A stretch of DNA of 64,000 nucleotides, from positions 352,001-416,000 of the forward strand of contig CAVQNG010000005.1 in NCBI GenBank assembly GCA_963713825.1, given 5' to 3'. A program made the translations under genes and the position numbers. Of the stretch, positions 1,463 to 23,493 are shown in pieces. Source of the DNA: an uncultured Acidobacteriota bacterium (lineage in GTDB: Bacteria; Acidobacteriota; Thermoanaerobaculia; Multivoradales; JAHEKO01). The first letter of the stretch is position 1; each line of letters starts with the position of its first letter. A model generated the notes under the pieces. It saw only the letters and a program-made list of their open reading frames with translations, did not search any database and had not been told where the DNA came from.

Positions 1463-1511
1463 TCGACTTCGCAAGATTCCCGAGCATCAGTTGGGTAGAC
1501 TTCCCTTGATC

Positions 1512-7028: not shown

Positions 7029-7252
7029 GCGAAGATCCCAGAAATCGATCTTCGACTCTCCTCTCGGTGAGTTATGGGATCTGGCTCCCAGTACAGAGGA
7101 CATTCGGTCACCCCGGTGGAGAACGCGCGCTCTAGTCTCGTACATTGATCAATGGCGGAGACCAGAGAAGGGACTTGTCCGACGGTGCGAGAGTCCGCTA
7201 CTTGACTTATCCAAGGTCGGTACGGCGCACCCAGTATGGAGCCGAATCTGAA

Positions 7253-8391: not shown

Positions 8392-9627
8392 TTGAGACGT
8401 GCCCCCTGGCTGCTATTGCCGTTTCTGTTTCTTCCTAATCTGGTGCCAGTACAAGGAACAGGCTTTGGAGATCTGGAGTTCTCGGATCTTCTGATTGGGC
8501 CGTATCTTGCACTGGTGCTGTGGCTGTTTGTGAAAAGACGCACCGGCCGACGCAGGAGTTCGAGCCCATTGGCAGGTGTACTGCCATTCGCTCTCTTCTT
8601 CTTAGCGTGGGCATTTCTCTCGACCATTACTGCTGGATTGAGGTATGGGTTCGAAGTGCTGCTTCCCGTGCAGTTCGGTCTTCTCAAACTCCTGAAGTTC
8701 TCGGTCTATGGTGTGGCCGCGTGGCTTACGGTTGGCCTAGTGAGCAATGGTCGTGATTTGACTAGATTTCTCTGGGCGATCGCAGTAGGCGCACTCGTGA
8801 TGGCAGCATCCATGAGTCTGTCAGCTCCAGGGTCGAGTGATTCTTCAATCGGCGGACTGTTCGAGTACAAGTCAGAGAACGCGGCGAGTGTGGGGCTAGC
8901 CATTCTGATCATGTTCCTTGGGGCGGCTTTCGCCGCTAACTGGGGATCCCGAAAGTGGCGGTCTGCAGCGCCGTGGGTGCTGGTTGCGGTGTTCCTGGGG
9001 TTCGCCTTCTCAGAAGGTCGCGGTGGCTGGCTGGCTGCTGCCATGGGATTGCTATGGGTCCTGTATCGCAAGGGAATGAAGCTTCGATCATGGGCAATTG
9101 TCGGGGTGGTGATAGTGGTCGGAGTTGTCGTGTATCAGAAGGTGCCAACGTTTCAAGAAGAAATGGACCGGACATTGAACCCGGCCCCCGAGTATCTTCA
9201 CCAGTATGAAGTAGGGATGATGGGAGTAGACGAAGGTGGGCGCTTTTCCTATTGGCGCCGCGAAGGAAGCAAGATACTCGATGCGCCGCTCCTTGGGCGT
9301 GGCTTCTTCAACAGGTTCCCAGGTTCCGGTCTCAATTGGACCGGAAGTCACAATTTCTGGCTTCAGATGTTTCTCGAAACCGGAGTCGTCGGCGGCCTCG
9401 TTGTGCTAACGATTTTTTGGCTCTTCTGGACACAGTCGGGCAAGTACTCGCTGCTACCCAGCGAGGCGGCGCTGGTCGCGGGATTTGTTGGAGGGATGGG
9501 AGGTGAGTACTTTTACGGCGGGATGCCCTTGTTTTCGCTAATCGTGGTCCTTGCCCCACTTGGACTCCTGACATCTGAAAGAGCCTCACGAGTAATGACT
9601 GCCCAGTGGCCGGGAGTAGGCGGCTAA
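8392..9627 (+). CDS. Wzy polymerase / O-antigen ligase-like membrane protein
   Basis: Multi-TM protein with SEGRGGWL, a periplasmic loop, PLLGRG and SHNFWLQMFLETGVVG (Wzy_C HN..L...E.G motif). Confidence 0.8.
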   Translation: MRRAPWLLLPFLFLPNLVPVQGTGFGDLEFSDLLIGPYLALVLWLFVKRRTGRRRSSSPLAGVLPFALFFLAWAFLSTITAGLRYGFEVLLPVQFGLLKLLKFSVYGVAAWLTVGLVSNGRDLTRFLWAIAVGALVMAASMSLSAPGSSDSSIGGLFEYKSENAASVGLAILIMFLGAAFAANWGSRKWRSAAPWVLVAVFLGFAFSEGRGGWLAAAMGLLWVLYRKGMKLRSWAIVGVVIVVGVVVYQKVPTFQEEMDRTLNPAPEYLHQYEVGMMGVDEGGRFSYWRREGSKILDAPLLGRGFFNRFPGSGLNWTGSHNFWLQMFLETGVVGGLVVLTIFWLFWTQSGKYSLLPSEAALVAGFVGGMGGEYFYGGMPLFSLIVVLAPLGLLTSERASRVMTAQWPGVGG

Positions 9628-9631: not shown

Positions 9632-10534
9632 GTGTCCCCCAAGCCCCTTGTCTCTGTATTGATGCCTTCGCACAACTCGCGGGCCACGCTGCCGATGGCC
9701 CTGGCATCACTGGCCTCTCAGACCGTTCTGGATTGGGAGTGCATTCTTGTTGACGACGGATCGAGCGACGATTCCGGAATGCTAGTTCGGAGATTTGATG
9801 ATCAAAGGTTGAGACCTTTCCGGTTGCATGAGAACCAAGGTCGTCCGATAGCCAGGGAAATCGCCCTCGGCAAGGCAAGGGGTAAGTACTTGTGCATGTT
9901 GGATGCTGACGACTGGTACTACCCAAGAAAGCTAGAAGAGCAGTTGGAGGTTCTGGAATCAAATCCAGATCTGTCTCTCCTGGGAACTGGCATGGCCATC
10001 GTTGACTCGGGTATGGAGCTCTTGGCAATTCGAGCGGGAATGCATGACCAGAAAGGCGATTCTGAAGTTGGTCGGACATTTCTGCGGCTTGGACGCCCCC
10101 CAATATCGCATGCCACAGCGATGATCCGATGTTCTGAGATCACTCAGGCTCATTTCGATCCACAGTTCGAGGTGGCGGAGGATGTCGATTTTCTTCTTCA
10201 AGTCCTATGGGGGAGGCAATTCAGTGAGCTGCCAGAACCTCTTTACGCCTATGAGGAACCAGACGCGGCCAATGTGGATGAAATGAGACTCGCTCTTCGA
10301 AGTTTGCAGGGAGTCTTCTGGAAGCATAGAAATCTGGGTCCGTCGAGAGCCTTTCGTGAAATCGCTGTGGCCTGGTGCAAGAGCCTGATCTATTCGGTAG
10401 TGGTGCCACTTGGTCTCGGAGATCGAATTGTTCGCCGGCGATCGACTCGACCGAAAAGTAAGGAGAAGGAAGACTTCTACCGGGCGCGTGCCGAAGTTCG
10501 GCAGCTTGCGCAAGGGATGTTTGAGACAGGCTAG
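9632..10534 (+). CDS. GT2-family glycosyltransferase
   Basis: VSVLMPSHN, ILVDDGSSD, ARGKYLCMLDADD, AEDVDF. Confidence 0.9.
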   Translation: MSPKPLVSVLMPSHNSRATLPMALASLASQTVLDWECILVDDGSSDDSGMLVRRFDDQRLRPFRLHENQGRPIAREIALGKARGKYLCMLDADDWYYPRKLEEQLEVLESNPDLSLLGTGMAIVDSGMELLAIRAGMHDQKGDSEVGRTFLRLGRPPISHATAMIRCSEITQAHFDPQFEVAEDVDFLLQVLWGRQFSELPEPLYAYEEPDAANVDEMRLALRSLQGVFWKHRNLGPSRAFREIAVAWCKSLIYSVVVPLGLGDRIVRRRSTRPKSKEKEDFYRARAEVRQLAQGMFETG

Positions 10535-10591: not shown

Positions 10592-11779
10592 TCAGCGTCC
10601 AGGAAGTTTTTTGGCCAATCGCAGGTACTCTTCAACTACGGCGTTGTTCACTTTTCGGGAGTCAAACTTGGCGATGGCCCGCTCCTGAGCTCGAGCACCC
10701 AGGCGGAGTCGTAGCTCTGGTTGGTCGATGAGCCTTTGAAGTGCTGCAGCTAGCGCACCGGTTGTTCTGGGGGGCACCAAGAGGCCGGTTACATCGTTCA
10801 CCACAGCGTCGGAAAGGCCGGTGATTTCAGTCGCGACAGTCGGCAATCCCATGGCAGCAGCTTCTATCACGGCGGTCCCAAACCCCTCTCTGTAGCTGGG
10901 TAGACAGAGAATGTCAGATGCGCCCAGATATCGCTCGGGACTAGGTGAGAACCCGGTGCAGTGTATGCGGATGTGGCCTTCGATAGTCGACAGTGTGCTT
11001 GGTGGCAGGGGATCCAAGGCAGGCTCCAGTGGCCCTACAAGGAGCAAGTGCAAGAGACGATGGCCCTCCGCTAGTCCCTGAAACGCTTCCACGAGTTCAA
11101 CCAGTCCCTTGTCGCGGGTCAGACGGCCGACGAAGACAATTAGGAGCGCTTCCTGAGAGATGCCGAGTTCTTCTCGGACTTGCCTTCGAGAGTCCTCTCT
11201 ACTGCCGGAAGAGCCGAAGCGCTGCAGATTGACCCCGCTGATTGACCCCTGTGCCAAAACAGAAATCTTCCTGGGCTTCACAACGCCGTCATTTATAAGG
11301 AAGTCTCTTTGAGATGAACTGTCGGCATAGGTTTGTGTCGATAGAGACCCAATGAGACGATCGCAGCCCTTCAGCCCTAGCCTGGCTACTCCCGATAGAG
11401 TTTGCCAGCGTTGCCCTGTGAAAGTGTGGAGGCGGATTGGGATCCTGGAAAACACTCCGGCCAATGCAGAGAGCAGACCCGCTTTGGGTGTTGATGAATG
11501 AACAATGTCGAAGTGTCCGTCTCTCAAGACTCGCGTCAGCCTGGCAAGTGACCTGATGTCTTTGACTGGAGCAGGTTCTCGATTCATGGGGACCGAGCAG
11601 AACGGCACGTTTAGTTCTGACGCCACGCGAGATAGCCCCTTCCCATCGCCTGACACAAGAGTGACTTCAATCCCACTGTCTCGAATCGCGGCTACTTGGT
11701 CTAGAAGCAACGCCCTGAATGTGAAAGGCGAGCTGGCTACTCTTGCCAGGCGCAAAGGTCTGATCGCGTTTTGGTTCAT
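10592..11779 (-). CDS. GT4-family glycosyltransferase (CapM/PglA-like)
   Basis: DIVHSSTPKAGLL, FVGRLTRDKG, LPSYREGFG..IEAAAMGLP. Confidence 0.9.
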   Translation of the reverse strand: MNQNAIRPLRLARVASSPFTFRALLLDQVAAIRDSGIEVTLVSGDGKGLSRVASELNVPFCSVPMNREPAPVKDIRSLARLTRVLRDGHFDIVHSSTPKAGLLSALAGVFSRIPIRLHTFTGQRWQTLSGVARLGLKGCDRLIGSLSTQTYADSSSQRDFLINDGVVKPRKISVLAQGSISGVNLQRFGSSGSREDSRRQVREELGISQEALLIVFVGRLTRDKGLVELVEAFQGLAEGHRLLHLLLVGPLEPALDPLPPSTLSTIEGHIRIHCTGFSPSPERYLGASDILCLPSYREGFGTAVIEAAAMGLPTVATEITGLSDAVVNDVTGLLVPPRTTGALAAALQRLIDQPELRLRLGARAQERAIAKFDSRKVNNAVVEEYLRLAKKLPGR

Positions 11780-12037: not shown

Positions 12038-12664
12038 GTGAATTCCAGAGGTTTGTACGTGAGACTGGGAAAGAGGGCTTTGGACTTGAGTCTGACGTTG
12101 TTGGCGGCCCCTATTTGGATTCCTCTAGTAGTCATTCTGAGTGTCCTGATTCGGCTGACTCTCGGTTCACCGGTCTTCTTCCGGCAAATGCGGCCAGGTT
12201 TCCGGGGCGGCAAGTTCGAGATTCTCAAATTGCGGACAATGAAGGAGAGTCCTGACGTAGACGGAGAAATGATCGCGGATCAGAATCGAATGACTCGGTT
12301 TGGGAGATTGTTGCGAGGCACCTCTCTTGACGAGCTTCCTGAGCTGATCAATGTCCTGAAAGGTGAGATGAGCCTGGTAGGGCCAAGGCCTTTGCTGATG
12401 CAGTATCTAGACCGCTATACCACACGGCAGGCGCGGCGCCATGAGGTCCTCGCGGGAATCACGGGTTGGGCGCAAGTCAATGGTCGTAACGCGATAACTT
12501 GGGAAGAGAAGTTCGAGTTCGACATTTGGTACGTTGACAATATGAGCCTCTGGCTGGATCTGAAGATTCTCGGGATGACGGTCTGGAAGGTTCTGAAGGG
12601 AGAAGGGTTGAGCGCGGCGGGACACGCCACGATGCCAGAGTTCATGGGGACCCCTGATGAGTGA
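12038..12664 (+). CDS. pglC: Initiating undecaprenyl-phosphate sugar phosphotransferase (PglC/EpsL-like)
   Basis: KRALDL, F.Q.RPG, KLRTM, SLDELPELINVLKGEMSLVGPRP, GITGWAQVNGRN, D.WYV. Confidence 0.9.
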   Translation: MNSRGLYVRLGKRALDLSLTLLAAPIWIPLVVILSVLIRLTLGSPVFFRQMRPGFRGGKFEILKLRTMKESPDVDGEMIADQNRMTRFGRLLRGTSLDELPELINVLKGEMSLVGPRPLLMQYLDRYTTRQARRHEVLAGITGWAQVNGRNAITWEEKFEFDIWYVDNMSLWLDLKILGMTVWKVLKGEGLSAAGHATMPEFMGTPDE

Positions 12665-13280
12665 GTCGGTAGTAGTTATCGGAGCGGGTGGGCATGCGAA
12701 GGTTGTCCTGGCAACCCTGGAGGCACTGGGGACTGAGGTGACCGGGATCTTCGACGACAGCGCGGATCTTTGGGGAACGCAGCTTCTGGGCCACGAAGTC
12801 AAAGGCCCGGTCCAAGAGGCGCAGAGCTACGGGGCGCCGGGCATTCTGGCCATTGGCTCGAACCGCCAGCGGCAGAAACTTGCGGAGGAGCTGTCGCTCG
12901 AGTGGGTGTCAGCCATCCACCCCTCCGCTTTGGTCCACGAAACTGTGGAGGTTGGGCCTGGCTCCGTCATCTTCGCTGGAGCGATAGTCCAGCCCGAGAC
13001 GGTCATTGGTGATCACGTCATCGTCAATACGGGCGCGAGGATCGACCACGACTGCCGGATCGGCTCGTTCGCGCATATTGCTCCAGGAGCGTCCTTGGCT
13101 GGGACGGTGGCGATCGGCCAGGGAGCCCTAATGGGTATTGGGAGTTGCGCGATTCCCGGAGTGACAATCGGCGATTGGTCTGTCGTAGGGGCAGGCGCTG
13201 CCGCTGTAAGTGACCTCGATTCGCAGGTCACTGCCACCGGAGTACCCGCGAAGTCGGCTGCGGGAGACCTCTCTTCATGA
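12657..13280 (+). CDS. pglD: Sugar acetyltransferase (PglD/NeuD family, left-handed beta-helix)
   Basis: IGAGGHAKVV, AIGSN..R, IHPSA, NTGARIDHDC and hexapeptide repeats. Confidence 0.85.
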   Translation: MSESVVVIGAGGHAKVVLATLEALGTEVTGIFDDSADLWGTQLLGHEVKGPVQEAQSYGAPGILAIGSNRQRQKLAEELSLEWVSAIHPSALVHETVEVGPGSVIFAGAIVQPETVIGDHVIVNTGARIDHDCRIGSFAHIAPGASLAGTVAIGQGALMGIGSCAIPGVTIGDWSVVGAGAAAVSDLDSQVTATGVPAKSAAGDLSS

Positions 13281-14401
13281 GCCGGGTCTTTCTTTCACCA
13301 CCTCACTTGGGTGAGTCCGAGTTGGAACTCGTCAAGGGTGTTTTTGCGAGCAACTGGATTGCTCCAGTAGGTCCTGACGTGGAGGCCTTCGAGCGGGAGT
13401 TCGCGGAGACGGTAGGCGTGGGCAGTGCTGCGGCACTGTCCTCGGGAACGGCGGCGCTGCACCTCGCGCTGAAGCTCCTCGGTGTCGGGACAGGAGATCT
13501 GGTGATCTGCTCGAATCTGACCTTTGCCGCCACTGCCTTCGCAATTCACTACGTCGGGGCAGAGCCGGTATTCGTGGATTGCGACTCTTCGACTTGGAAC
13601 ATGGATCCCGGCCTTCTTGGCGAGGCTTTGGAGACCCTGGCTGGTGAGGGGACGCTTCCCAAGGCTGCGATCGTCGTGGACCTCTACGGTCAGAGTGCTG
13701 ATTGGGAGCCGATTCAGGAAGCCTGCGCCAGATTCGGTGTTCCGATTGTCGAAGATGCCGCGGAAGCTCTGGGCGCCACTTATGGAGACACTCCTCTGGG
13801 TCGTTTCGGCCAATTCGGTGTCTTCTCATTCAACGGCAACAAGATCATCACGACATCGGGTGGTGGGATGTTGGTGTCCGACGATAAGTCGGCCATCGTG
13901 AAGGCTCGCAAGTTGGCCAGCCAGGCGAGGGAGGATGCGCCACACTACGAGCACACGGAGATCGGCTACAACTACCGATTGTCCAATGTCCTGGCGGCCA
14001 TCGGGCGAGGCCAACTTCGAGTACTGGAAGACCGAGTGGCTGCGCGTCGGCGGATTTTCGACTGGTATCAGGAATTTCTTGGAGATCTGCCCGGGGTGCG
14101 ATTCATGCCCGAAGCAGAGTATGGGCGAAGCACTCGGTGGCTCACCTGCCTGACCGTCGATCCTCGCGACTTTGGGGCCGCCCGGGAGGAGATTCGCTTG
14201 GCTCTCGAGATCGACGACATCGAAGCTCGTCCCGTATGGAAGCCGATGCACATGCAACCGGTCTTTCAAGGAGCTCGAATCTTCGGCGGGTCTGTTGCGG
14301 AAGAGCTCTTTGAAAAAGGGCTTTGTCTACCGTCGGGGTCAGCGATGACGAAAAGCGAAGTTGAGCGTGTCTCGAAAATCGTCCGCGGTTGCAGTGTCTA
14401 A
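13277..14401 (+). CDS. pglE: DegT/DnrJ/EryC1/StrS aminotransferase (PglE/EpsN-like)
   Basis: SSGTAALHLAL, EDAAEALG, FSFNGNKIITTSGGG (PLP Lys), GYNYRLSN, RPVWKPMH. Confidence 0.9.
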   Translation: MSRVFLSPPHLGESELELVKGVFASNWIAPVGPDVEAFEREFAETVGVGSAAALSSGTAALHLALKLLGVGTGDLVICSNLTFAATAFAIHYVGAEPVFVDCDSSTWNMDPGLLGEALETLAGEGTLPKAAIVVDLYGQSADWEPIQEACARFGVPIVEDAAEALGATYGDTPLGRFGQFGVFSFNGNKIITTSGGGMLVSDDKSAIVKARKLASQAREDAPHYEHTEIGYNYRLSNVLAAIGRGQLRVLEDRVAARRRIFDWYQEFLGDLPGVRFMPEAEYGRSTRWLTCLTVDPRDFGAAREEIRLALEIDDIEARPVWKPMHMQPVFQGARIFGGSVAEELFEKGLCLPSGSAMTKSEVERVSKIVRGCSV

Positions 14402-14419
14402 CTGAGGGCCCGGCAATCG

Positions 14420-15631
14420 GTGCGGCAAGGACTCCGCTTCTCCCCACCTTCAATTGATGTACCCGCGGAAGTCGATTGGCTTCTTCTACGGGCTCTTGGG
14501 CGTGAGTTCACTGCCTGGGATGAAACGGGGACTCTCGATCCCAAGGGACTTTCCGAACTTGCGGGGGCAGTCGGACTACTTGGCCGAGTACGAGCTCGTT
14601 GGCCTCGTGAGAAGCTGGTTCCCGAGCTGGGTGCCGGCTTGTTGGAAGAGGCAGACAGGGCTATTCACCGGATTGCGGCGAACGAGCTGCTTCAAGAAAG
14701 GGTGTCCTCACAGATTGCCGGCATGGCCAGCGAAGAGGGAGAACCCTCCATCTTCCTGAAAGGCCTGGCGCTCCGATTGGGAGGCCATTCGATTGCGGGA
14801 GCTCGCCAAGCAAGTGACATCGATGTGTTGGTACCGCGTGACGCTGCCGAGTCTCTGTCTCGGACTCTCATCCAGGAGGGGAGCACCAAGCTCGAAATCC
14901 AGCCGCAAGAGCATCACCTTCCGCCGTTGGACCATCCGCTGGGAGCGGTAGTGGAGATTCATGTGGACCTTCGAGGGGTCAATCTGGAGGGGAGAGGAGC
15001 AGCCACAGCCGAAGAGTGCATCAGCTCAGGCCAATGCCGAGCTCTCGAAGGGTGGCCCGAGGGGACCTACATTCCGGATTCGAGCCTTTTGATGGCCCAC
15101 CTACTTGTACATGGCCTCGGACAACACGGTTTCTCACCGGGGGCATACCCATTGATACAACTCTTGGCTGACCTGCAGGATTTGGGCTTCACCGGCGAGC
15201 AGGGTGAGCGATTCATGGAGGAAGGTCTCCTCTGGATCCAGAATGAAGTCTCTCAAGAGGAAGTGGCAGGGACCAGAGATCTGTTGCGCCAGCTGGAAGA
15301 GGGCGAGAGGGCTTCCGAGATCGTGGTTAGGGACGTTGCCGCCGCCTTGATTCTCAAGCACATGTTGGCTGGATCGATGGATGCCGAGTATCGACAGTCT
15401 CTGAAGCTCTCTGCTGTTACCCGACCTTCGATCGCGCGTCCGGGTCTGACGGGTCTTCTTCGCAACATGAGTAGTGCGATCTTCTTGACGAGAGGTCAGA
15501 TCGACGTGATCTACGGACAGCCACAGACCGAGGTTGGCTATCTCGCTAGAAGGCTGTGGCGCCCCTTCGATCTCGTGGGCCGAACCCTCAAGACCTTGCA
15601 GGCCAAGAAGAAGCTTCGATTCCGCGAATAG
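14420..15631 (+). CDS. Nucleotidyltransferase family protein (NTP_transf_5; PadeN/PsmN-like)
   Basis: IFLKGLAL...GARQASDIDVLV (LKG...R...DxD) and VVEIH, followed by a helical LLVH region. Confidence 0.75.
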   Translation: MRQGLRFSPPSIDVPAEVDWLLLRALGREFTAWDETGTLDPKGLSELAGAVGLLGRVRARWPREKLVPELGAGLLEEADRAIHRIAANELLQERVSSQIAGMASEEGEPSIFLKGLALRLGGHSIAGARQASDIDVLVPRDAAESLSRTLIQEGSTKLEIQPQEHHLPPLDHPLGAVVEIHVDLRGVNLEGRGAATAEECISSGQCRALEGWPEGTYIPDSSLLMAHLLVHGLGQHGFSPGAYPLIQLLADLQDLGFTGEQGERFMEEGLLWIQNEVSQEEVAGTRDLLRQLEEGERASEIVVRDVAAALILKHMLAGSMDAEYRQSLKLSAVTRPSIARPGLTGLLRNMSSAIFLTRGQIDVIYGQPQTEVGYLARRLWRPFDLVGRTLKTLQAKKKLRFRE

Positions 15632-15679
15632 GTGGGGGAGATCGACCCTCTGCTGTAGTAGGGTTCCAGGGACCGTGCC

Positions 15680-17614
15680 ATGAACGAATCGAACGGTGAG
15701 ACGCCCCGATCGCAGCCATCCTCGCCCTTGATCGGTGAGGAGCAGGGGCGTCGGAATCAGTTTTGGTCGCGTTTCTTCTCTCGCCAGGCCCAGTTCGTCC
15801 TCGACATCTCTGTCCTTTGCATAGCCTTCGTCATCGCCTATCTGCTGCGGTTCGAGTTTCAGCTCGACACTTCCCAACTGCAGCGACTGCTGGCCCAGCT
15901 GCCGCTGGTGGTGCTAATTCAGATTGGTGCACTGGTTCTGGCCGGTGTCTACAGCTTCATCTGGCGCTACGTTGGATTGGCCGAGATGGCTTCGTTCGTG
16001 AGAGCGGCCCTCTGGTCGGGATTGATTCTCTTGGTCGGGCGGTTGGCCTTGCCATCGTCTCTCCAGATCTGGCGAGTACCTCTTTCCATCATCCTGATGA
16101 GCACGTTCTTCGGATTTGCCGGAGTCGTGACGATTCGGGTGCTCCGTCGGATCCTCTTCGAGCGCTTCGAGCAGAAACGTCGACCGGTGGAGCCGTACAA
16201 GCGCAAACAGATCTTGATGGTCGGTGCTGGCAGAGCAGGTGTTCTGGCAGCCCGCGAGATTCGCGGCCGGGGCGATATGGATGTGTGGATCAAGGGTTTC
16301 GTCGACGATGATCCACGTAAGCAGGGGGCTGTCATCCAAGGCAAGAAGGTCCTTGGGACGACGGACGATCTCCCTGAAATATGCCGATCCACGGACATCG
16401 ACCACGTCATCATCACGATTGCCCAGATCTCCAGAGAGGAGCTACGGAGGATCGTGGCGATCTGTGAGGAGATTCCCCTCAGGACTCGCATCATCCCGGG
16501 GCTCTACGAGATTCTCGAAGGGCGAGTCGGGATCACGAGATTTCGGGACATCGAGATCGAAGATCTCCTGGGCCGGGCAACCGTGCAACTGGAGCAGGAA
16601 GCGGTAGAACCGTTCATCAAGAACAAGACGGTGCTGGTGACCGGGGCGGGAGGCTCGATCGGAGCCGAGCTGTCGAAGCAGATCGCCCGGTTCGGACCCG
16701 CCAACCTCATTCTCCTGGAGCGAGCGGAGTTCGCTCTGTTTCAGATCGATCGGGAGCTCTCCATTGATTGGCCCCAGCTGAGCATTCAGCCCGTGGTGGC
16801 AGACATCTGTGACCGCAATCGGGTACGACAGATCTTCGACCGTTGGAAGCCTGAAGTGGTCTTCCATGCTGCCGCTCACAAACATGTTCCACTGACCGAA
16901 TCCAATCCTTGCGAGGCGGTGAAATCCAACACCCTGGGGACATGGATCGTGGGCGAGGTCGCGGGAGAGTTCGGCTGCGAGGCAATGGTTGTGGTGTCCA
17001 CGGACAAAGCCGTCCGTCCGACGTCGGTAATGGGAGCGACGAAGAGAGTCGCAGAGCTTGCGGTGCAAGAGCTCGACGCGCGCAATGGCACTCGTTATGT
17101 GGCTGTGCGCTTCGGCAATGTGCTGGGTTCTACGGGGTCGGTCATTCCGATCTTTCGCGAGCAGATCGAGGCGGGTGGGCCGGTGACCGTGACGCATCCC
17201 GAGATGGTGCGCTACTTCATGACCATCCCGGAGGCGGCTCAGCTGGTGTTGCAGGCTGGCGCGATGGGTGAGGGAGGCGAGATCTTCATCCTCGATATGG
17301 GAGAGCCCGTGCGAATCCTCGACCTGGCCCGGGACATGATCACGCTCAATGGCCTGGTGCCGGACGAGGACATCGAGATCGAGATCACGGGAATGCGGCC
17401 GGGTGAGAAGCTCTTCGAGGAGCTTCAGACCGACGCCGAGTCGATCGCCAAGACGCGGCATCCGAAGATCTTCATCGGGAACATCAACTCCTATCCTTCG
17501 GAGCAGATCCTTGGAGCGCTGGACCGGCTGCGTGACTTGTCTGCGGGCGGCGAAGAGGCTGAAGTTCGATCGTTCCTGAACGAGTTTCTGTCCGAGGCGA
17601 AGCTCACCATCTAG
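15680..17614 (+). CDS. pglF: Membrane-bound UDP-GlcNAc 4,6-dehydratase (PglF/CapD/WbpM)
   Basis: Four N-terminal TMs; GAGRAG, IEDLLGR, VTGAGGSIGAEL, HAAAHKHVP, STDKAV, MGATKR, VRFGNVLGSTGSV, RPGEKLFEEL. Confidence 0.92.
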   Translation: MNESNGETPRSQPSSPLIGEEQGRRNQFWSRFFSRQAQFVLDISVLCIAFVIAYLLRFEFQLDTSQLQRLLAQLPLVVLIQIGALVLAGVYSFIWRYVGLAEMASFVRAALWSGLILLVGRLALPSSLQIWRVPLSIILMSTFFGFAGVVTIRVLRRILFERFEQKRRPVEPYKRKQILMVGAGRAGVLAAREIRGRGDMDVWIKGFVDDDPRKQGAVIQGKKVLGTTDDLPEICRSTDIDHVIITIAQISREELRRIVAICEEIPLRTRIIPGLYEILEGRVGITRFRDIEIEDLLGRATVQLEQEAVEPFIKNKTVLVTGAGGSIGAELSKQIARFGPANLILLERAEFALFQIDRELSIDWPQLSIQPVVADICDRNRVRQIFDRWKPEVVFHAAAHKHVPLTESNPCEAVKSNTLGTWIVGEVAGEFGCEAMVVVSTDKAVRPTSVMGATKRVAELAVQELDARNGTRYVAVRFGNVLGSTGSVIPIFREQIEAGGPVTVTHPEMVRYFMTIPEAAQLVLQAGAMGEGGEIFILDMGEPVRILDLARDMITLNGLVPDEDIEIEITGMRPGEKLFEELQTDAESIAKTRHPKIFIGNINSYPSEQILGALDRLRDLSAGGEEAEVRSFLNEFLSEAKLTI

Positions 17615-17637
17615 TTCGCAAGGTCGAGTCCCCCAAC

Positions 17638-18066
17638 CTATTTCGATAGCAGGGGCAGGAAGCGCTCCCCGATGGCCTCCGGCTCGTTCATGGGCTTGCC
17701 GGTCAGCTCGAGCCAGGCGTGGGCCTCCAAATCGCCCCCCTGTTTCTGGACGCCGATCTTGAGCTCAGCCTCGACGCCGCGCTTGCGGAGCATTCTTTGC
17801 CGTGTCAGTGAGCGCTCGAGGCACTGCATGCGCCACAAATGATTGTTGGCTGCCGCATCGACGCACCAAGCGAGGCGAGAGTAGTCCTCTCGAGTCGCTT
17901 CCTCTGTCTGTGGTGTCTCGATGACAGGTACCCGAGCCCACGTCTCGACGGCAGGGAACGGTCGTGTTCGCAGCGCCACGCGGAACCCCAGCAGGAGTAT
18001 CCAGGCTTCCACCAGCCAGCGTCTCTCAGCCCAGGTCAGACCAAGGATCTGCTCAGTCTTGCTCAT
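17638..18066 (-). CDS. Lasso peptide leader peptidase (B2 protein, transglutaminase-like)
   Basis: 142 aa; QCLERS (catalytic Cys), LKIGV, EAHAWLE (catalytic His); coupled to a PqqD gene. Confidence 0.9.
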   Translation of the reverse strand: MSKTEQILGLTWAERRWLVEAWILLLGFRVALRTRPFPAVETWARVPVIETPQTEEATREDYSRLAWCVDAAANNHLWRMQCLERSLTRQRMLRKRGVEAELKIGVQKQGGDLEAHAWLELTGKPMNEPEAIGERFLPLLSK

Positions 18067-18325
18067 GCACGATCTCGAGGAGGCCCTGGTCGCAGAGCTC
18101 CTGCGTCAGTGATTGGAGGTCTCGCTGGAGTCGAGCACCGTCTACCTCGAACTCGTCCAGGAGGTCGAAGGCGGCTTGTTCCAGCGTCCCGTGCTTTTCC
18201 AGGGCCAGCCACATGCGTGTGCCGACGTCGTCGAGGCCAAAATAGAAGCCGGTGGAGAGGTTCAGAAGAACAGTCTCGTTCTCCAACTCTCGAAAGACGA
18301 CCTGTTCTGGTACTTTGACTCGCAC
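18053..18325 (-). CDS. RiPP recognition element (PqqD family, lasso B1)
   Basis: 90 aa; ETVLLNLSTGFYFGLDDVGTRMW...EFEVD...DL..L...GLL. GTG start with GGAGA upstream. Confidence 0.9.
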   Translation of the reverse strand: MRVKVPEQVVFRELENETVLLNLSTGFYFGLDDVGTRMWLALEKHGTLEQAAFDLLDEFEVDGARLQRDLQSLTQELCDQGLLEIVHEQD

Positions 18326-18421
18326 TGCATTCTCCGTGATCGGGTGGCGGCTTCCCGGGTAGGATAGCAGCGCATGCTGACAACATGCGGAGGACTATCG
18401 ACAGTACCGAGGTTTTGAATC

Positions 18422-19240
18422 GTGACGACAGAAGGCAAGAAGAAGGAAGTGGGAACGTGGTGGGTATCCGGCTTGCGTGTCGCTAGCGATCGCCCGCTGA
18501 TCGAAGTCGAACCGAGCAGTGACCAAGACGTGGATCTGCAAGTGCTGTTTCGGGCTGATCCGGGGAGCGAGGTCGATGTCGGAGTGCTTTCCTCGGCCGA
18601 CAGCTCAGGCGACTGGTTCAAGTTGATGGATAAGGACGCAGCGCTGGCGTGGATCCGCGCTGACGGGCGATTGGCCCTGGTCGCGGAGGGCGAGGCGTTG
18701 GTCCGCGGTTTCGATGCATTGGTTCGACGGGTCGTGCCTTTCGCAGCTGCTTTGCAGGACCGGGTTGTACTCCACGCCTCGTCGGTCCTTGCTGATGACG
18801 GTGTGCATGCGTTTATCGGTGCCAGTGGCGCTGGCAAGTCGAGCCTCGCGGAGTGCCTGGGCGATCAGGGGTTCCCCGTTCTGTCGGATGATCTGTTGCT
18901 GTGCCTACCGACCGATACCGGGATCGTGATCCCGCGCCCAGGGCAGGATGAAGACGACGAGTCGGGGCCCGCACTCGCCGCCGTCTATTTCGTCGAGCGT
19001 GAGGTGGCGCTCGACAAGATCGATCTCCAGGAGATGGCTGAGGAGGAGTGTTTCAAAGGTCTGCTGCAGCACGGTTTCGGAGAGTTGAGTGTTCCGAAGA
19101 TCTGGGCAGCCCAGTTCGAGCTCTACTCGATCATCTCGGAGCAGTGCAAAGCCTACCGGCTGCGGCTCCCCGATTCTCTGGGACGGCTCGCAGAGTCCGC
19201 TGAGACCTTGGCTCGAGGCTGGAGCCCGGTCCAAGATTGA
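18422..19240 (+). CDS. HPr-kinase-related kinase (PadeK/PsmK-like lasso tailoring kinase)
   Basis: VVLHAS...IGASGAGKSS (Walker A)...VLSDD is the HprK-like His / P-loop / DD signature. Confidence 0.8.
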   Translation: MTTEGKKKEVGTWWVSGLRVASDRPLIEVEPSSDQDVDLQVLFRADPGSEVDVGVLSSADSSGDWFKLMDKDAALAWIRADGRLALVAEGEALVRGFDALVRRVVPFAAALQDRVVLHASSVLADDGVHAFIGASGAGKSSLAECLGDQGFPVLSDDLLLCLPTDTGIVIPRPGQDEDDESGPALAAVYFVEREVALDKIDLQEMAEEECFKGLLQHGFGELSVPKIWAAQFELYSIISEQCKAYRLRLPDSLGRLAESAETLARGWSPVQD

Positions 19241-19262
19241 CCCCTTCGCCAACCCAGCCGAC

Positions 19263-21203
19263 ATGAGTGGCATCGCCGGAATCGTGCATTGGGATGGTCG
19301 CCCAGTGGCGGATGGCGATCTCGGACGCATGCTGGGGGCGATCCGCCACCGCGGGCCCGATGGCCTGGTAGGAGAGGTCACAGAGTCGGTGGCGCTCGGA
19401 CAGGCGAGGCTCGCAATGCGGGCTGAGGAGCGAGAGCACACCCAGCCGGTGTGGCTGCCAGACCGCTCTTGCGCCATCGTGGCGGACGCCAGGCTCTACA
19501 ACCGGGAAGAGCTTCTGAGCGATATGGCTGGCGCGAATCGGATCGCCGGCCCGGCTTCGGATGCTGCGCTTCTTCTCGCGGGTTACGAGCGCTGGGGCGT
19601 CGAGGTGCTTCAGCGCCTCAATGGTGACTTCGCTTTCGCCATCTGGGACTCGTCGAAACAGCAGATCTTCGCGGCTCGGGATCCGTTCGGAGCCAAGCCA
19701 TTCGTATTCTGGTCCGGCAGCGACACGTTTCGATTCGGTTCCGAGCCGAAGCAGCTCCTGATCTTCCCCGAAGTGCCGGTTGAGCCCGAGAGTCAGACCG
19801 TCGTCGAGCATCTTCTGGACTTGCCAAAGGCTCGGGAGCTGACCTTCTTCCGTGGGGTGCATCGGCTGCGGGCCGCGCACTTCCTGGTGGCTTCTGCCGA
19901 CGGCATCGCCCAGCGCACCTATTGGCACCCAGAGAGCCTCGGTCTTCTCGAGCTGTCTTCAGAGGAAGAGGCCTTCGATCGCTTTCGCGCTTTGTTCAAG
20001 CAGTCCATCGCAAGTCGACTCGGGACCGACGGGTCTGTCGGTGCGCAGCTGAGCGGAGGTTTGGACTCCTCATCGGTGGCTGCCATGGCGGCGGAGATCT
20101 ACGGCGACGCAGGCGAGGATCTGCCCCAGCTGGAGACCATTTCGGAAACCTATGCGAGTTTTCCCTGCGACGAGACTCCTTACATCGAAACGATGGCCGA
20201 GTGGCTTCCTTTTCCCTCTCGTCGGATCGATTGCTCGGAATTCGATTTCGCCTCGTCGATCGAGACGGAGGTCTGGAATGAAGATGGGCCGACCGCAGAG
20301 CTGACCCCGGACCGGACCCGGAGCAACTCCGAGGTGTTGTCGAGTTTCGATGCGCGGATCCTGATGACCGGGTATGGAGGGGATGAGCTGACCTGGGATC
20401 CGGAATGGGCTCCCGACCTGCTGAAGCAGGGTCGGGTGCTGTCGGCCTTGGAGCAGTCCTGGCAGCTGAGCCGTTTACCGGAAGAGGATGCCTTGCCGTC
20501 GATCCTCAAGAGGGCGATCGTGCAATCAATACCCGAGAGCCTGAGGGCGTCCTTGGCAGCGATACGTCCGCGAAGGACCCTGGAGTGGCCCGTTCACCTG
20601 CAGCCTGATCTGCTTCGCCCTATCGGAGATGTCGAAGAGCCCCTCGAGTCGAGGAACACGTCCTTCTCGTCTGCCCAGCGAACCGTCCTCCGATGGCTCA
20701 CCGACCCTCTGCTGTATTGGAATCTGGAACGGCTCGAACAGCGGTACGCGTTCTGGGGCGTGGAGATGAGGCATCCCTTCTTCGACAGAGGATTGGCCGA
20801 GTTGGTTCTGACCACTCCGTTCGAACGTAGGGTCGCTCCGCCCAGCAGGCGCAAGGCGCTGCTGCAAGAGGCTATGCAAGGGATCCTGCCGCCAGAGATT
20901 CTCCGGCGGCGCAGTCAGGTCGTGTTCGACTCCTACTTCCAGGAGGCCTGGCGGCAGTGGCAGCCACGTTTGAGGGCAGTGATCCACTCCTCAGATGCAT
21001 GGCTCTCTGAGCCCTATACTGATCGAGAGACAGTCCTCTCGTGGCTGGAATCACCGGCCCGGGATGAGACGATGCCGATGCGGGTGCTGTCGCAGGTCTG
21101 GGCAGCCTTGGGTCTGGAGGTTTGGCTCAGGGGCCTTGGTCGCTACTCGGCTGCGGAGTATGATGATGCATCGCAATCGCTGGGAGATGAAGACCATGCC
21201 TGA
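19263..21203 (+). CDS. Lasso peptide cyclase (asparagine-synthetase-like C protein)
   Basis: Starts MSGIAG at ATG 19263 (AsnB has MCGIAG). HRGPDG, GDFAFAIWD, ARDPFGAKP, LSGGLDSS, TGYGGDE, RHPFFD. Flanked by B1/B2 genes and a precursor. Confidence 0.88.
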   Translation: MSGIAGIVHWDGRPVADGDLGRMLGAIRHRGPDGLVGEVTESVALGQARLAMRAEEREHTQPVWLPDRSCAIVADARLYNREELLSDMAGANRIAGPASDAALLLAGYERWGVEVLQRLNGDFAFAIWDSSKQQIFAARDPFGAKPFVFWSGSDTFRFGSEPKQLLIFPEVPVEPESQTVVEHLLDLPKARELTFFRGVHRLRAAHFLVASADGIAQRTYWHPESLGLLELSSEEEAFDRFRALFKQSIASRLGTDGSVGAQLSGGLDSSSVAAMAAEIYGDAGEDLPQLETISETYASFPCDETPYIETMAEWLPFPSRRIDCSEFDFASSIETEVWNEDGPTAELTPDRTRSNSEVLSSFDARILMTGYGGDELTWDPEWAPDLLKQGRVLSALEQSWQLSRLPEEDALPSILKRAIVQSIPESLRASLAAIRPRRTLEWPVHLQPDLLRPIGDVEEPLESRNTSFSSAQRTVLRWLTDPLLYWNLERLEQRYAFWGVEMRHPFFDRGLAELVLTTPFERRVAPPSRRKALLQEAMQGILPPEILRRRSQVVFDSYFQEAWRQWQPRLRAVIHSSDAWLSEPYTDRETVLSWLESPARDETMPMRVLSQVWAALGLEVWLRGLGRYSAAEYDDASQSLGDEDHA

Positions 21204-21357
21204 CAACTATCGCGACCCGAAAAGAAACCAAAGCGGCTCGAAGACTCGCAAACCCTACAACAAGCCCGAGCTGAAGAAGCACGGCCACATGGCCGACGTC
21301 ACCCAGAAGAGCGGTAACAACTTCGACAATAGCCAACAGTGGCAGTCGAAGAAGTAG
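21196..21357 (+). CDS. Lasso peptide precursor, 53 aa; predicted core KSGNNFDNSQQWQSKK
   Basis: GGAG at 21183-21186 precedes ATG 21196, which overlaps the cyclase stop. Translation MPDNYRDPKRNQSGSKTRKPYNKPELKKHGHMADVTQ-KSGNNFDNSQQWQSKK contains YxxPxLxxxGxxxxxT. Asp at core position 7. Confidence 0.85.
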   Translation: MPDNYRDPKRNQSGSKTRKPYNKPELKKHGHMADVTQKSGNNFDNSQQWQSKK

Positions 21358-21379
21358 TAGGTCTCTCGCCGCTTGGCGC

Positions 21380-22198
21380 ATGCCTCGCACGCCCCTTACA
21401 GCACGACTCTTCTGCTTTTCCGATGGCGTTTTCCGCCAGGTCAATTCTGCGATCTTGGCCCTTTATCAGGGCTTCTGGTTGGGTTGGATGGGATCGAAGT
21501 CCCTGAACGAAGCGACTCGCCTCTACTACGCGGGACGATCGAAGTACCTGGACTCCGAGTACAACACCTCAGGCTTGAAGGACTGGGAGGCTCGTATCGC
21601 GGATCGCTACTTCAGCGACTGTCGGACCTTGCTCGTCGGTGCTGTTGGTGGCGGGAGAGAAGCGGTGGCTCTGGCCGAGAGAGGAAAGGCTGTTACGGCC
21701 TTCGAATGCTCCGCAGAACTGGCCCAGAGTGCCCGTGATGTGCTTTCCAGAGAGGGACTGATTGCCGAGGTGATGACGGTGGCCCCCAGCGAGGTGCCAA
21801 GTCTCGACACCTGTTTCGATGGAGCTGTGGTGGGCCTGGGTGGCTACATGCACATCCCGGGCAAGGCCGTCAGAGTGCGCTTCCTCCAGGATCTTCGAGA
21901 TCGGGTCGAGTCTGGAGCGCCGCTGCTACTCTCCTTCTTCACCCGCACTCCCGACTCTCGGTTCTTCCTCTGGAGCCGAAGGGTGGCCCGTTTCATTCGC
22001 CGACTTCGATTCAGCCGGGAGGAGGTGGATCTGGGGGACGCGGTGGACAGGTCCTTCGACCATCACTTCACGCAGGAAGAGATTGCCGCTGAGCTGGCCG
22101 CCGCCGGCTTCGAGCTGGTCGACTACGGCGAGGACCCGATAGGCCATGCCGTGGGCCTGGCTACACGTGTGATTCCTCGAACTGCTCCTCTTCGGTAG
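21380..22198 (+). CDS. Class I SAM-dependent methyltransferase-like protein
   Basis: [20 protein letters not shown] (motif I and acidic residue), FDGAVVG..GYMHIP. Its 3' end overlaps aceA convergently. Confidence 0.7.
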
Positions 22199-23447: not shown

Positions 23448-23493
23448 TTCGCTTCTCCTCTCGAAATCAGATGGCTCGCTTCCTGCAGTCCGA

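Follow-up and report, generated by a model that had tools for sequence, protein, structure and literature searches.

A lasso peptide cluster abutting an exopolysaccharide locus in a Thermoanaerobaculia genome, with a nucleotidyltransferase as the probable link

Pfam, NCBIfam and ORF searches of a Thermoanaerobaculia metagenome-assembled genome revealed a lasso peptide gene set (leader peptidase B2, the leader-binding protein B1/RRE, an HprK/PEPCK-fold kinase, a lasso cyclase, a 53-aa precursor and a methyltransferase) that abuts an exopolysaccharide (EPS) locus, in which a PF14907 nucleotidyltransferase (NTase) gene is placed between pglE and pglF (Table 1). The two transcription units probably form one functional system joined through this NTase, on which the glycan block and the peptide machinery would then hinge. 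The best explanation as a whole, to which we give an even chance, is that the two units work as one pathway in which the pgl-encoded NTase acts on the lasso precursor. If it does so, the locus of the window (the whole analysed stretch of 64,000 nt) may combine peptide chemistry with that of sugars.

Table 1 Features of the window with positions, strand and the basis of each assignment
Feature	Position	Strand	Basis
448-aa protein without family match, probable outer-membrane component of the EPS export machinery	116..1462	+	Kept next to Wza in relatives
Wza-like polysaccharide exporter	1434..2387	+	Poly_export 69.8 bits; SLBB_2 80.8 bits
Wzx-type flippase	2553..3896	+	Polysacc_synt 66.4 bits
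Weak sulfotransferase-like protein	3871..4827	+	Sulfotransfer_3 23.2 bits (cut-off 27); Sulfotransfer_1 19.1 bits (cut-off 22)
Class I methyltransferase, glycan locus	4815..5774	+	Methyltransf_23/31/11, 55-57 bits
GT4 glycosyltransferase, split into fragments here	5771..7028	+	Glycos_transf_1 on fragment 6684-7028
GT2 glycosyltransferase	7145..8302	+	Glycos_transf_2 50 bits
Wzy-type polymerase or ligase	8392..9627	+	Wzy_C 56 bits
GT2 glycosyltransferase	9632..10534	+	Glycos_transf_2 99.8 bits
GT4 glycosyltransferase	10592..11779	-	Glycos_transf_1 110.7 bits
PglC-type small phosphoglycosyl transferase, initiating enzyme	12038..12664	+	Bac_transf 205.9 bits
PglD/NeuD-type sugar N-acetyltransferase	12657..13280	+	PglD_N 52.2 bits; TIGR03570 205 bits (cut-off 160.8)
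PglE/DegT-type sugar aminotransferase	13277..14401	+	DegT_DnrJ_EryC1 309.4 bits
NTase	14420..15631	+	PF14907 59.9 bits (cut-off 31.2)
PglF-type membrane-anchored UDP-sugar 4,6-dehydratase	15680..17614	+	Polysacc_synt_2 386.6 bits; CoA_binding_3 47 bits
Lasso leader peptidase B2	17638..18066	-	NF033537 89.9 bits (cut-off 33); Transglut_core3 84.6 bits
B1/RRE, PqqD-family leader-binding protein	18053..18325	-	PqqD PF05402 54.7 bits
Divergent intergenic region, 96 bp, between the RRE-B2 and kinase-cyclase operons	18326..18421	.	Gene coordinates
HprK/PEPCK-fold P-loop kinase	18422..19240	+	TIGR04352 30.8 bits, E 1.5e-7 (under cut-off 200)
Asn-synthase-like lasso cyclase	19263..21203	+	NF033535 347.5 bits; Asn_synthase 142.5 bits
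Precursor peptide, 53 aa	21196..21357	+	Translation; start overlaps cyclase stop codon
SAM methyltransferase, module-specific	21380..22198	+	Methyltransf_25 24.1 bits (under cut-off)

A preliminary description had placed the lasso genes 23 bp past pglF and an NTase inside a pglC-D-E-F-like block, and both placements were recovered: 23 bp separate the stop codons of the convergent genes pglF (17614) and B2 (17638), and the NTase gene is predicted to be co-transcribed with the pgl genes, convergent to RRE-B2 and with no operon link to the lasso set. Contigs from three of four sediment or salt-marsh metagenomes, one of them from a strain ~5% divergent, bridge the junction (17614-17638), which rules out an assembly artefact. 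Chance adjacency of lasso and glycan genes would be uncommon: the 10 kb surroundings of core glycan markers make up 2.9% of the genome, and those of all glycan markers 7.4%.

The first unit would be the end of a Wzx/Wzy-type EPS locus with a conserved PglC-PglD-PglE-NTase-PglF block, predicted to serve a 2,4-diamino-sugar of the bacillosamine type. Among the upstream genes named in the preliminary description, Wzx, Wzy and the Wza-like exporter were matched, whereas the sulfotransferase, although present, is the weakest call, with both Pfam scores under the curated cut-offs; its target is probably the glycan, and in G515 the EPS locus has a homologue (27% identity) placed between its Wzx and GT2 genes. 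The 448-aa protein gave no match in Pfam and NCBIfam searches; its homologues (30-37% identity) stand beside Wza/Wzc in four loci (L123, L125, L126 and L128) and recur in many of the 20 sampled NTase loci described below. The fragmented GT4 gene has an intact copy (418 aa) on the duplicate contig C32. As to the GT4 gene upstream of PglC, synteny in L127, L139, L140 and L155 places a GT4 immediately 5′ of PglC in the same direction. The order PglC-D-E-NTase-(epimerase)-PglF recurs in G017, G515 and G026, and the NTase follows PglE or PglD in these three genomes and in G023, where the order PglC-PglD-NTase-PqqD-PglF puts an RRE gene within the pgl operon. A kinase-PqqD-cyclase set stands 3 kb past PglF in G026.

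The second unit would be a split-B, kinase-type lasso cluster made up of two divergent operons, RRE-B2 and kinase-cyclase-precursor-methyltransferase. The intergenic region between them is presumed from the gene layout to be the promoter region; a consensus scan found no sigma-70-like site in it. The RRE gene overlaps B2 by 14 nt, and its product scores 42.7-43 bits with the lasso_PqqD models, under their cut-offs. Genome G000 has just two clear PqqD-type RREs, that of the window and one on contig C3, which belongs to a self-contained cassette with its own NTase. The P-loop of the kinase (G133-S140) is invariant, and its structure model (pLDDT 81.5) matched PEPCK (E 2.6e-7) and HprK/P chains (E 1.4e-5) in Foldseek. 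For the cyclase, NF033535 is the best family, yet its score stays under the cut-off of 525; the protein starts with Met-Ser-Gly, while glutamine-hydrolysing enzymes start with Met-Cys-Gly. The precursor leader matches YxxPxLx3Gx5Tx exactly (Y21-P24-L26-G30-T36), the core begins at K38, and the peptide is conserved in all six genome-derived modules found via enzyme homology. Judged by its sequence, the precursor is unusual: the core conserves Lys1, the predicted ring acceptor Asp7 and Ser/Thr2, Ser2 being its sole conserved hydroxyl, and the peptide ends in Lys-Lys without a C-terminal Ser; therefore, the acceptor site of paeninodin and pseudomycoidin is absent. Homologues of the methyltransferase (35-52% identity) are located 3′ of the precursor in L018, L019, L020, L053, L107 and L136. 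A Pfam scan found no ABC exporter dedicated to the lasso cluster of the window.

We compared 20 loci of the NTase clade, one per genus, with 19 control regions on the same contigs, using a 10 kb radius. A core glycan marker was present at 18/20 NTase loci and 2/19 controls, whereas a PqqD-type RRE HMM match (8/20), a kinase HMM match (7/20), either of the two (8/20) and a glycan marker together with an RRE or kinase (7/20) were seen at no control (0/19 each). As far as gene neighbourhoods can tell, the NTase, RRE-dependent peptide machinery and glycan loci are linked repeatedly and not by chance. The NTase even sits inside lasso operons of the same family in two relatives, abutting WecA-type transferases: G510 has an NTase-cyclase-precursor-kinase operon with B2 and RRE opposite, adjoined by WecA and GT4 genes and located at the same ICL-malate-synthase site as the cluster of the window, and G015 has PqqD-kinase-cyclase, NTase, an MT-like gene, an ABC exporter and B2, adjoined by WecA and WecG.

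The NTase itself has an intact DxD motif (D133 and D135) that is invariant across 47 sequences and a structure model of pLDDT 91.2 whose best folds are MenT1, ANT(2'')-Ia, LnuA and TM1012. A three-chain model of NTase, RRE and precursor scored 0.86 (runs 0.87, 0.86 and 0.85), compared with 0.00 for the best of three controls. The score mark is reached by 116/157 solved complexes and 2/215 mismatched pairs, a calibration that differs from our model in its alignments, which here were made by us, and in the number of chains, and the score expresses model confidence rather than a measurement. The runs share at least 47% of contacts, with a partner pLDDT of at least 79. NTase residues 59-94, 126-127, 132 and 174-177 contact RRE 10-30 and precursor 29-36, the stretch right before the core, which in the model adjoins D133/D135. 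In this model the NTase docks on the lasso RRE together with the leader, and we put its being a working part of the lasso pathway at slightly better than even.

In the proposed pathway, the leader would be bound by the RRE, as its motif suggests, and the HprK-fold kinase would phosphorylate Ser2 of the core, by analogy with BsfK acting on Ser3. The model places the pgl-operon NTase on the RRE-leader complex, its DxD site close to where the core begins, and by analogy with PsmN the enzyme may then convert the phospho-Ser to a sugar joined by a phosphodiester. The donor of this sugar or glycan would come from the NTase's own locus, in view of its conserved residence there. B2 would cut off the leader, the cyclase would close the Lys1-Asp7 ring and the methyltransferase would add a methyl group. 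A glycan link of the lasso peptide is plausible, and that the product bears sugar or glycan supplied by the locus of the window is possible but falls somewhat short of even; that it is attached to the polymer or to a lipid-linked unit instead of occurring as a free phosphoglycopeptide is very doubtful.

The two units could instead be independent neighbours, with the NTase a glycan-pathway enzyme that, for example, nucleotidylates or decorates an EPS-repeat sugar, the lasso peptide free and at most phosphorylated and methylated, and the adjacency explained by a variable surface or secondary-metabolism region in which both reside. We regard this as rather unlikely, although several observations fit it. 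The preliminary description had proposed linkage of the lasso clade to glycan loci across relatives as a test, and this expectation largely failed: in four of five informative relatives (G023, G515, G036 and G922) the kinase-cyclase-precursor-methyltransferase module has neither adjoining glycan genes nor an adjacent NTase. The NTase clade is ~20 times more widespread than the lasso clade of the window (156/300 genomes of the order, against 7/300 for the kinase clade), and 12/20 NTase loci lack an RRE or kinase within 10 kb, having glycan genes or nothing else. Its presence in five of the seven kinase-clade genomes is not above the base rate of the family (32/44), and it therefore has a role that does not depend on the lasso module of the window. 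G017 carries the pgl-NTase block but lacks a kinase of the window's clade, the junction is convergent, and the nearest solved folds belong to ANT(2'')-Ia and LnuA, which transfer NMP to the hydroxyls of sugars. Against mere neighbourhood speak the RRE or kinase genes beside the NTase clade and their absence from the controls, the NTase within the lasso operons of G510 and G015, the PqqD gene in the pgl operon of G023 and the docking model, whose best control scored 0.00. The peptide-glycan reading of the preliminary description is partly supported: the recurrent NTase/RRE/glycan linkage and the predicted docking favour it, and the position of the lasso module away from glycan genes in most relatives speaks against its strong form.

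The strong form of that reading would have the NTase activate the phosphopeptide for transfer to a lipid-linked repeat, to the Wzx/Wzy polymer or, via a PglC/WecA-type phosphotransferase, to undecaprenyl phosphate. PglC-type or WecA-type initiating transferases do lie close to the NTase in the window and in nine other loci (L127, L139, L140, L155, L145, L146, L151, L138 and L053), Wzy_C-type genes flank it in L123, L125, L141 and L142, the lasso cluster has no ABC exporter of its own, and the chemistry would, in our view, fit an NDP-activated phosphodiester transfer. Such a surface conjugate is nevertheless improbable: we know of no precedent for flipping or polymerising a unit with a 16-residue knotted peptide, the clusters of G015 and G510 have ABC transporters, as expected for a secreted free peptide, and in most relatives no glycan genes adjoin the lasso module. 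There is a slighter chance still that the NTase acts on the RRE-bound peptide by sugar-free chemistry, such as nucleotidylation only, its residence in the EPS locus reflecting co-regulation, e.g., of a peptide that serves as a capsule signal or regulator. The intact DxD motif in an NTase fold, the docking on RRE and leader, the EPS regulators Wzc (a tyrosine kinase) and CpsB (a phosphatase) in many NTase loci and a CpsB gene immediately 5′ of the kinase in G005 are consistent with this, but PsmN, the only characterised relative of this type, leads to hexose addition, and the placement of the NTase tightly between PglE and PglF, both sugar-nucleotide enzymes, points to a substrate link and not solely a regulatory one.

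The proposed glycosylation of the phosphorylated precursor by the pgl-encoded NTase can be set against several known systems. The Campylobacter-type Pgl pathway leads via PglF, PglE, PglD and PglC to di-N-acetylbacillosamine, and the same four enzyme families are found in one block in the window, where, however, the NTase separates PglE from PglF, an oligosaccharyltransferase was not seen and the surroundings are a Wzx/Wzy EPS locus. Xanthomonins are lasso peptides with a seven-residue ring that starts with Gly and is closed on Glu7; in the window, the ring would likewise be closed at position 7, with Lys1/Asp7 as the conserved pair.

The background invoked by the preliminary description, on kinase phosphorylation, PsmN-type NTases and NTase/sulfotransferase genes in lasso clusters, is backed by PMC8498205, PMC10368454 and PMC11912497, on which the following comparisons draw. 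In the paeninodin type, the linear precursor is the substrate of an HprK-like kinase, with cyclisation following, and some clusters carry NTase and sulfotransferase genes, the NTase sometimes being fused to B2; unlike the window, these are Firmicutes systems in which a C-terminal Ser is (poly)phosphorylated, with no glycan locus reported to be involved (PMC8498205). Davasins resemble the proposed product in being glycosylated lasso peptides tailored by an enzyme of polysaccharide-type ancestry, but IgtG, a membrane protein of the GT2/deacetylase type, modifies a Ser of the mature lasso peptide directly, and phosphate, kinase and NTase are lacking from the system as described there (PMC11912497). 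The bsf lasso cluster of Bradymonas sediminis (BsfK, BsfN), like that of the window, is of the split-B type, comes from a Gram-negative host and has a kinase, an optional N gene and a YxxPxL motif at -17 to -12; BsfK, aided by B1, phosphorylates a ring Ser (Ser3). The bsf core has Gly1...Asp8 with Ile at -2, compared with Lys1...Asp7 and Thr at -2 in the window, and the bsf cluster, unlike that of the window, includes an ABC exporter and has unrelated genes on its borders (PMC10368454). Similar in gene content, going by description rather than by PsmN/PsmK sequence, is pseudomycoidin of Bacillus pseudomycoides, whose cluster also combines a kinase (the HPr-kinase homologue PsmK) with a PF14907-type NTase, PsmN, which is essential for putting one or two hexoses on the phosphate (PMC8498205, PMC11912497) and whose activity in vitro was never shown (PMC11912497). 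There, according to the same sources, the acceptor is the C-terminal Ser, the NTase gene lies inside the cluster and no glycan locus is reported, whereas in the window the precursor offers Ser2, the NTase is encoded in the neighbouring pgl operon and a glycan locus adjoins the lasso set.

The lasso genes follow directly on the end of a Wzx/Wzy-type polysaccharide locus in the source genome (G000; 5.4 Mb in 38 contigs), and the coordinates agree with the preliminary description, which had placed the lasso set 23 bp from the end of pglF and a PF14907 nucleotidyltransferase (NTase) inside the pgl block. The GC content rises from 54-55% in the variable glycosyltransferase part to 58.5% in the pgl block, and it reaches 60-62% in the lasso genes and beyond them. 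A promoter and terminator scan of 11700-22400 returned one promoter-like and three terminator-like sites, fewer than in shuffled sequences. Downstream (22161-31614), the glyoxylate shunt genes for isocitrate lyase and malate synthase are convergent with the lasso methyltransferase and overlap it by 38 bp, and beyond them come a TetR regulator and the genes of an RND efflux system (OEP, HlyD, AcrB). Members of the 90%-identity cluster of the isocitrate lyase are listed at NCBI as Thermoanaerobaculia MAGs, as are more distant homologues of the NTase.

Features of the polysaccharide and lasso loci in the window
Feature	Position	Strand	Remarks
Wzx/Wzy-type polysaccharide locus		+	Unnamed 448-aa protein, Wza, Wzx, weak sulfotransferase-like gene, methyltransferase, GT4/GT2 genes, Wzy
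PglC-PglD-PglE-NTase-PglF	12038-17614	+	End of polysaccharide locus
B2	17638-18066	-	Stop codon 23 bp past pglF
PqqD-type RRE, 90 aa	18053-18325	-	Precedes B2, overlap 14 nt
Divergent spacer, 96 bp			Between RRE-B2 and kinase
Kinase	18422-19240	+	
Cyclase	19263-21203	+	
Precursor ORF, 53 aa	21196-21357	+	Start inside cyclase stop codon
Methyltransferase	21380-22198	+	Convergent overlap with end of isocitrate lyase gene

The pglF-B2 junction is bridged by contigs in three of the four sediment or salt-marsh metagenomes examined. Contig C32 of the same genome (31.3 kb) duplicates positions 343266-374590 of C5, the contig that carries the window at 352001-416000, with 99.5-99.9% identity, and over window positions 1-22590 the two copies are 99.5% identical, with 113 differences of which 43 are indels. 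Clustered indel errors hit different genes in the two copies: a GT4 gene (5771-7028) is fragmented in the window but whole in C32 (418 aa), and NTase and PglF are full of frame-breaking indels in C32 but undamaged in the window. Given this identity and the error-like indels, C32 was rejected as a genuine second copy of the locus and is treated as assembly redundancy.

The families Polysacc_synt_2 (PglF), DegT (PglE), PglD_N with hexapeptide (PglD) and Bac_transf (PglC) occur together, PglD also scoring above the cut-off of TIGR03570, and this combination is that of a predicted Pgl-type diamino-sugar block. The sulfotransferase-like gene gave weak family matches, and its homologue in genome G515 lies between Wzx and GT2; a function as a lasso tailoring enzyme is unsupported.

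Among the lasso proteins, B2 matches the transglutaminase-like leader peptidase family NF033537 (89.9 bits, cut-off 33) and the RRE matches PF05402 (54.7 bits, cut-off 23.4). The best family of the putative Asn-synthase-like macrolactam cyclase is the lasso cyclase model NF033535 (347.5 bits, under the cut-off of 525), and its score against asn_synth_AEB is likewise under the cut-off (245 against 267); as the protein starts Met-Ser-Gly, with Ser in place of Cys2, it lacks the glutaminase nucleophile. For the kinase, Pfam gave no match and TIGR04352 a weak one (E = 1.5e-7, 30.8 bits against a cut-off of 200), a score on which its assignment to the NCBIfam 'HPr-rel-A system' (HprK-related kinase A) was rejected, and the RRE gave no match to TIGR04353, the PqqD of that system. 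A P-loop is present in the kinase and invariant across 10 homologues; a search of PDB sequences with the kinase profile returned mostly P-loop matches, HprK appearing just at E ~0.003. The structural matches of its AlphaFold model (pLDDT 81.5) are PEP carboxykinases and HprK/P chains, which share one kinase fold, and P-loop, TIGR04352 match and model together point to an HPr-kinase homologue in the lasso cluster. No ABC_tran match, and hence no ABC exporter (D), was found among the genes at 12038-25179. Leader, Asp7, RRE and B2 are all present, as in split-B lasso clusters, and the predicted product is a lasso peptide.

The precursor ORF reads MPDNYRDPKRNQSGSKTRKPYNKPELKKHGHMADVTQKSGNNFDNSQQWQSKK, and its residues 21-37 fit the leader motif YxxPxLx3Gx5Tx exactly (Y21, P24, L26, G30, T36). 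Applying the register of BsfA, in which Tyr, Pro and Leu stand at -17, -14 and -12 (PMC10368454), predicts a core of residues 38-53, with Lys1, Ser2, Gly3 and Asp7, and leaves a Thr at -2. Six kinase-cyclase-precursor-methyltransferase modules were collected via kinase or cyclase homology and not via the peptide (the window and genomes G023, G036, G010, G315 and G515). All six genome-derived precursors carry Lys-Ser/Thr-Gly-x3-Asp after Thr-x, and thus Asp7; none ends in Ser (the window precursor ends Lys-Lys), and Ser/Thr2 is the sole core hydroxyl in two. Across the 17 listed cores, position 2 is Ser or Thr in 16 and Ala in one. To our knowledge, Lys is residue 1 of no characterised lasso peptide, and a precursor family with Lys1, Ser/Thr2 and Asp7 would broaden the range of sequences known for lasso cores. 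In the Bsf system the kinase BsfK modifies Ser3 of the core and requires the RRE to do so (PMC10368454), which by analogy makes Ser2 the natural candidate for the phosphate acceptor of the window precursor.

A metagenome pattern scan that fixed Lys1, Gly3 and Asp7 beforehand yielded 44 loci, almost exclusively short precursor-type ORFs; the conservation of these three residues carries no weight because the search pattern set it, and the scan is uninformative on adjacency because most contigs are too short and many long ones have no lasso enzymes nearby. Short ORFs with a lasso-type leader and a Lys-x-Gly-x3-Asp core (loci L059, L076, L086, L087 (~10001-10072), L060, L061 and L097) have no lasso enzyme within ~7 kb and look like orphan precursors. 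One such subfamily always lies between glutathione S-transferase and methylpurine-DNA glycosylase genes, and another occurs on low-GC contigs beside Por-secretion-tail proteins.

A glycan-linked, phosphoglycosylated lasso peptide had been proposed from the window; in related genomes, homologous lasso clusters proved largely unlinked to glycan loci, adjacency of the module being clear in one of five fully informative relatives. Close relatives of the window's kinase (the kinase clade) occur in 7 of 300 genomes of the order, in 5 of 401 in a class sample and in one further genome in a phylum sample. In the latter, the kinase HMM at E<=1e-8 matched 119 of 401 genomes, mostly through generic HprK-like proteins, and because just G315 exceeded 150 bits the threshold was moved to E<=1e-22; a contig scan with patterns from the kinase alignment matched 600 stretches, among which a single one, in a Promineifilum MAG, was a relative and the patterns otherwise picked up generic P-loops. 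In G315 an NTase of another PF14907 branch precedes the module, and after the module come the RRE, a WecA-like transferase, epimerases and glycosyltransferases. The 5-kb contig of G005 has CpsB immediately ahead of the kinase, and an MBOAT acyltransferase lies near the module of G922. No glycan genes stand beside the module in G023, G515 or G036:C41, nor within 3.7 kb upstream of it in G010; the G002 contig is too short to show its neighbours. These contexts count against a glycan link specific to the window's lasso clade. B2 is unlinked to the module in G023, G036 and G315.

B2 homologues are found elsewhere in several genomes (G023:C5:2566049, G036:C2:228048, G315:C27:109495 and G017:C95:14861), alone among housekeeping genes in G023 and G017 and paired with a PqqD gene in G036. 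At the locus of the congener G005 (L106, G005:C26, 3425-4971), a CpsB/CapC-type PHP phosphatase precedes the lasso kinase by 20 bp in the same orientation, with neither RRE nor B2 between them.

The NTase, encoded in the pgl operon 2.0 kb from B2, has D133 and D135, which are kept in 47 of 47 aligned sequences. The nearest folds to its model (pLDDT 91.2) are MenT1, ANT(2'')-Ia, LnuA and TM1012, enzymes that transfer NMP to a hydroxyl; a PDB sequence search with the NTase profile gave no meaningful match. An HMM of 47 sequences, which defines the NTase clade, finds it in 156 of the 300 genomes from the order, mostly in single copy. It occurs in five of the seven kinase-clade genomes, compared with 156/300 in the order and 32/44 in the family, and because this co-occurrence is not enriched, the idea of a dedicated tailoring enzyme of the window's lasso clade was dropped.

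The genes and gene order around the NTase reveal a conserved residence of its clade in glycan operons. Nine of the first 13 NTase loci outside the window lie in glycan loci, two do not (L124, L129) and two are cut by contig ends (L130, L119); an RRE HMM match was found in six. In a sample of 20 NTase loci, hand-picked on long contigs at one per genus from related genomes and scored together with 19 control regions taken from the same contigs at distances of 40-200 kb, using for both a marker panel taken partly from NTase loci, a core glycan marker lay within 10 kb in 18/20 loci and 2/19 controls, an RRE HMM match in 8/20 and 0/19, a kinase HMM match in 7/20 and 0/19, and a glycan marker together with an RRE or kinase in 7/20 and 0/19. 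The sample supports an association of the NTase clade with glycan, RRE and kinase genes in the order.

The order GT4-PglC-PglD-PglE-NTase-PglF or a near variant recurs in G017, G515 (Wzx, sulfotransferase and GT2 inserted ahead of PglF) and G026 (an epimerase ahead of PglF, and a kinase, a PqqD fusion protein and a cyclase 3 kb past it), and G023 has PglC-PglD-NTase-PqqD-PglF, with the RRE gene within the pgl operon 312 kb from the lasso module. The clade also keeps repeated company with RRE/kinase genes and lasso operons. In G015, PqqD-kinase-cyclase, NTase, a methyltransferase-like gene, an ABC exporter and B2 adjoin WecA and WecG, and in six loci (L123, L124, L128, L141, L143 and L144) PqqD, an HprK-like kinase and a radical-SAM/SPASM enzyme replacing the cyclase lie near the NTase. 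In G510, from the window's family, the NTase heads an NTase-cyclase-precursor-kinase operon with B2 and RRE opposite; genes for a WecA-like transferase, an epimerase and GT4 flank the locus on one side and, as in the window, isocitrate lyase (85% identical to the window's) and malate synthase on the other. The precursor core differs, so one chromosomal site is occupied by distinct lasso cassettes in the two genomes, a pattern suggestive of the replacement of cassettes at a conserved EPS-NTase-lasso hotspot.

The G510 cassette (L145, G510:C4, 8078-19901; compared with window 12038-25179) encodes a core starting with Leu and with Glu at position 9, its own kinase type, a two-component system and an ABC-2 exporter. 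In L124 (G261, 6712-10546) and L134 (G315:C27, 8696-12314), a cassette of PqqD, radical-SAM/SPASM, HprK-like kinase or B2-like, and PF14907 genes adjoins subtilase and beta-propeller proteins of giant size (1700-2100 aa); in L123, L128, L141 and L143 this type of cassette sits inside EPS loci.

Structure prediction of the NTase, as the scored partner, with RRE and precursor gave three-chain scores of 0.87, 0.86 and 0.85, and 0.00 in all three controls; the scores express model confidence and are not a measured quantity. In the calibration, whose set-up differed from ours in that we used custom alignments and three chains, 116 of 157 solved complexes attained such a score, as did 2 of 215 mismatched pairs. 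The runs share at least 47% of contacts, with a partner pLDDT of at least 79, and the predicted interface joins NTase residues 59-94, 126-127, 132 and 174-177 to RRE residues 10-30 and precursor residues 29-36. As the latter are the leader end, the start of the core lies next to D133/D135 in the model. The NTase is thus predicted to dock on the RRE-leader complex, and we know of no solved NTase-RRE complex that the prediction could have memorised. G000 has two clear PqqD-type RREs, the lasso RRE and one in a cassette on contig C3. Should the EPS-locus NTase depend on an RRE, the one of the lasso cluster, at a distance of 2.4 kb, would be its obvious partner.

The C3 cassette (G000:C3:1329631-1332401; L108, 3631-6401) is self-contained: it encodes a PqqD of 86 aa, an ORF of 82 aa whose start resembles a Tat signal, an HprK-related kinase (78 bits against TIGR04352) and its own PF14907 NTase (162.6 bits), and it contains neither cyclase nor B2.

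In many genomes the NTase clade occurs without the window's lasso clade, where it would either serve several peptide cassettes or have a glycan role of its own. It is mainly on account of this spread that we retain the explanation that NTase and lasso cluster are independent neighbours, an explanation we regard as unlikely with the RRE and kinase genes beside the clade and the predicted docking also in view. In the reading that we prefer, and hold about as likely as not, the kinase would phosphorylate Ser2, the NTase would act on the phosphopeptide, the pgl/EPS pathway would supply the sugar donor and the ring would be closed between Lys1 and Asp7.

A far more speculative extension, to which we assign a very low probability, is a relay of kinase, NTase and phosphotransferase that attaches ribosomal peptides to envelope glycans. 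The HprK-fold kinase would yield phospho-Ser2, the RRE-guided EPS-locus NTase would turn the phospho-Ser2 peptide into an NDP-peptide, and the peptide-phosphate would be moved to undecaprenyl phosphate or a repeat-unit sugar, either by a phosphotransferase of the PglC or WecA type or by the NTase. Lasso peptides, and radical-SAM peptides in other genomes, would then be phosphodiester-linked decorations, caps or primers of exopolysaccharides, and the NTase clade, in about half of the order's genomes, would mark a general peptide-on-polysaccharide system.

Kinase/NTase lasso systems form the known background of this locus (PMC8498205, PMC10368454, PMC11912497); a full-text literature search, with subscription journals outside its scope, found no paper linking lasso or PqqD/kinase/NTase cassettes to polysaccharide loci. 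If peptide and glycan are joined, the product would be a new kind of bacterial surface glycoconjugate and lasso peptides would gain a role besides that of diffusible antibiotics; the locus and its relatives define a small gene set for reconstitution. In paeninodin and pseudomycoidin the phosphate acceptor is a C-terminal Ser, a feature that the window precursor does not share. For PsmN-type sugar addition to phosphorylated lasso peptides, PMC11912497 describes the mechanism as unsolved, with no in vitro activity reported and the true substrate not known. The residence of the NTase clade in sugar-nucleotide/EPS operons, near initiating phosphoglycosyl transferases, together with the predicted RRE docking, offers a concrete lead on the PsmN question and points to UDP-diamino-sugars and lipid-linked units as candidate co-substrates.
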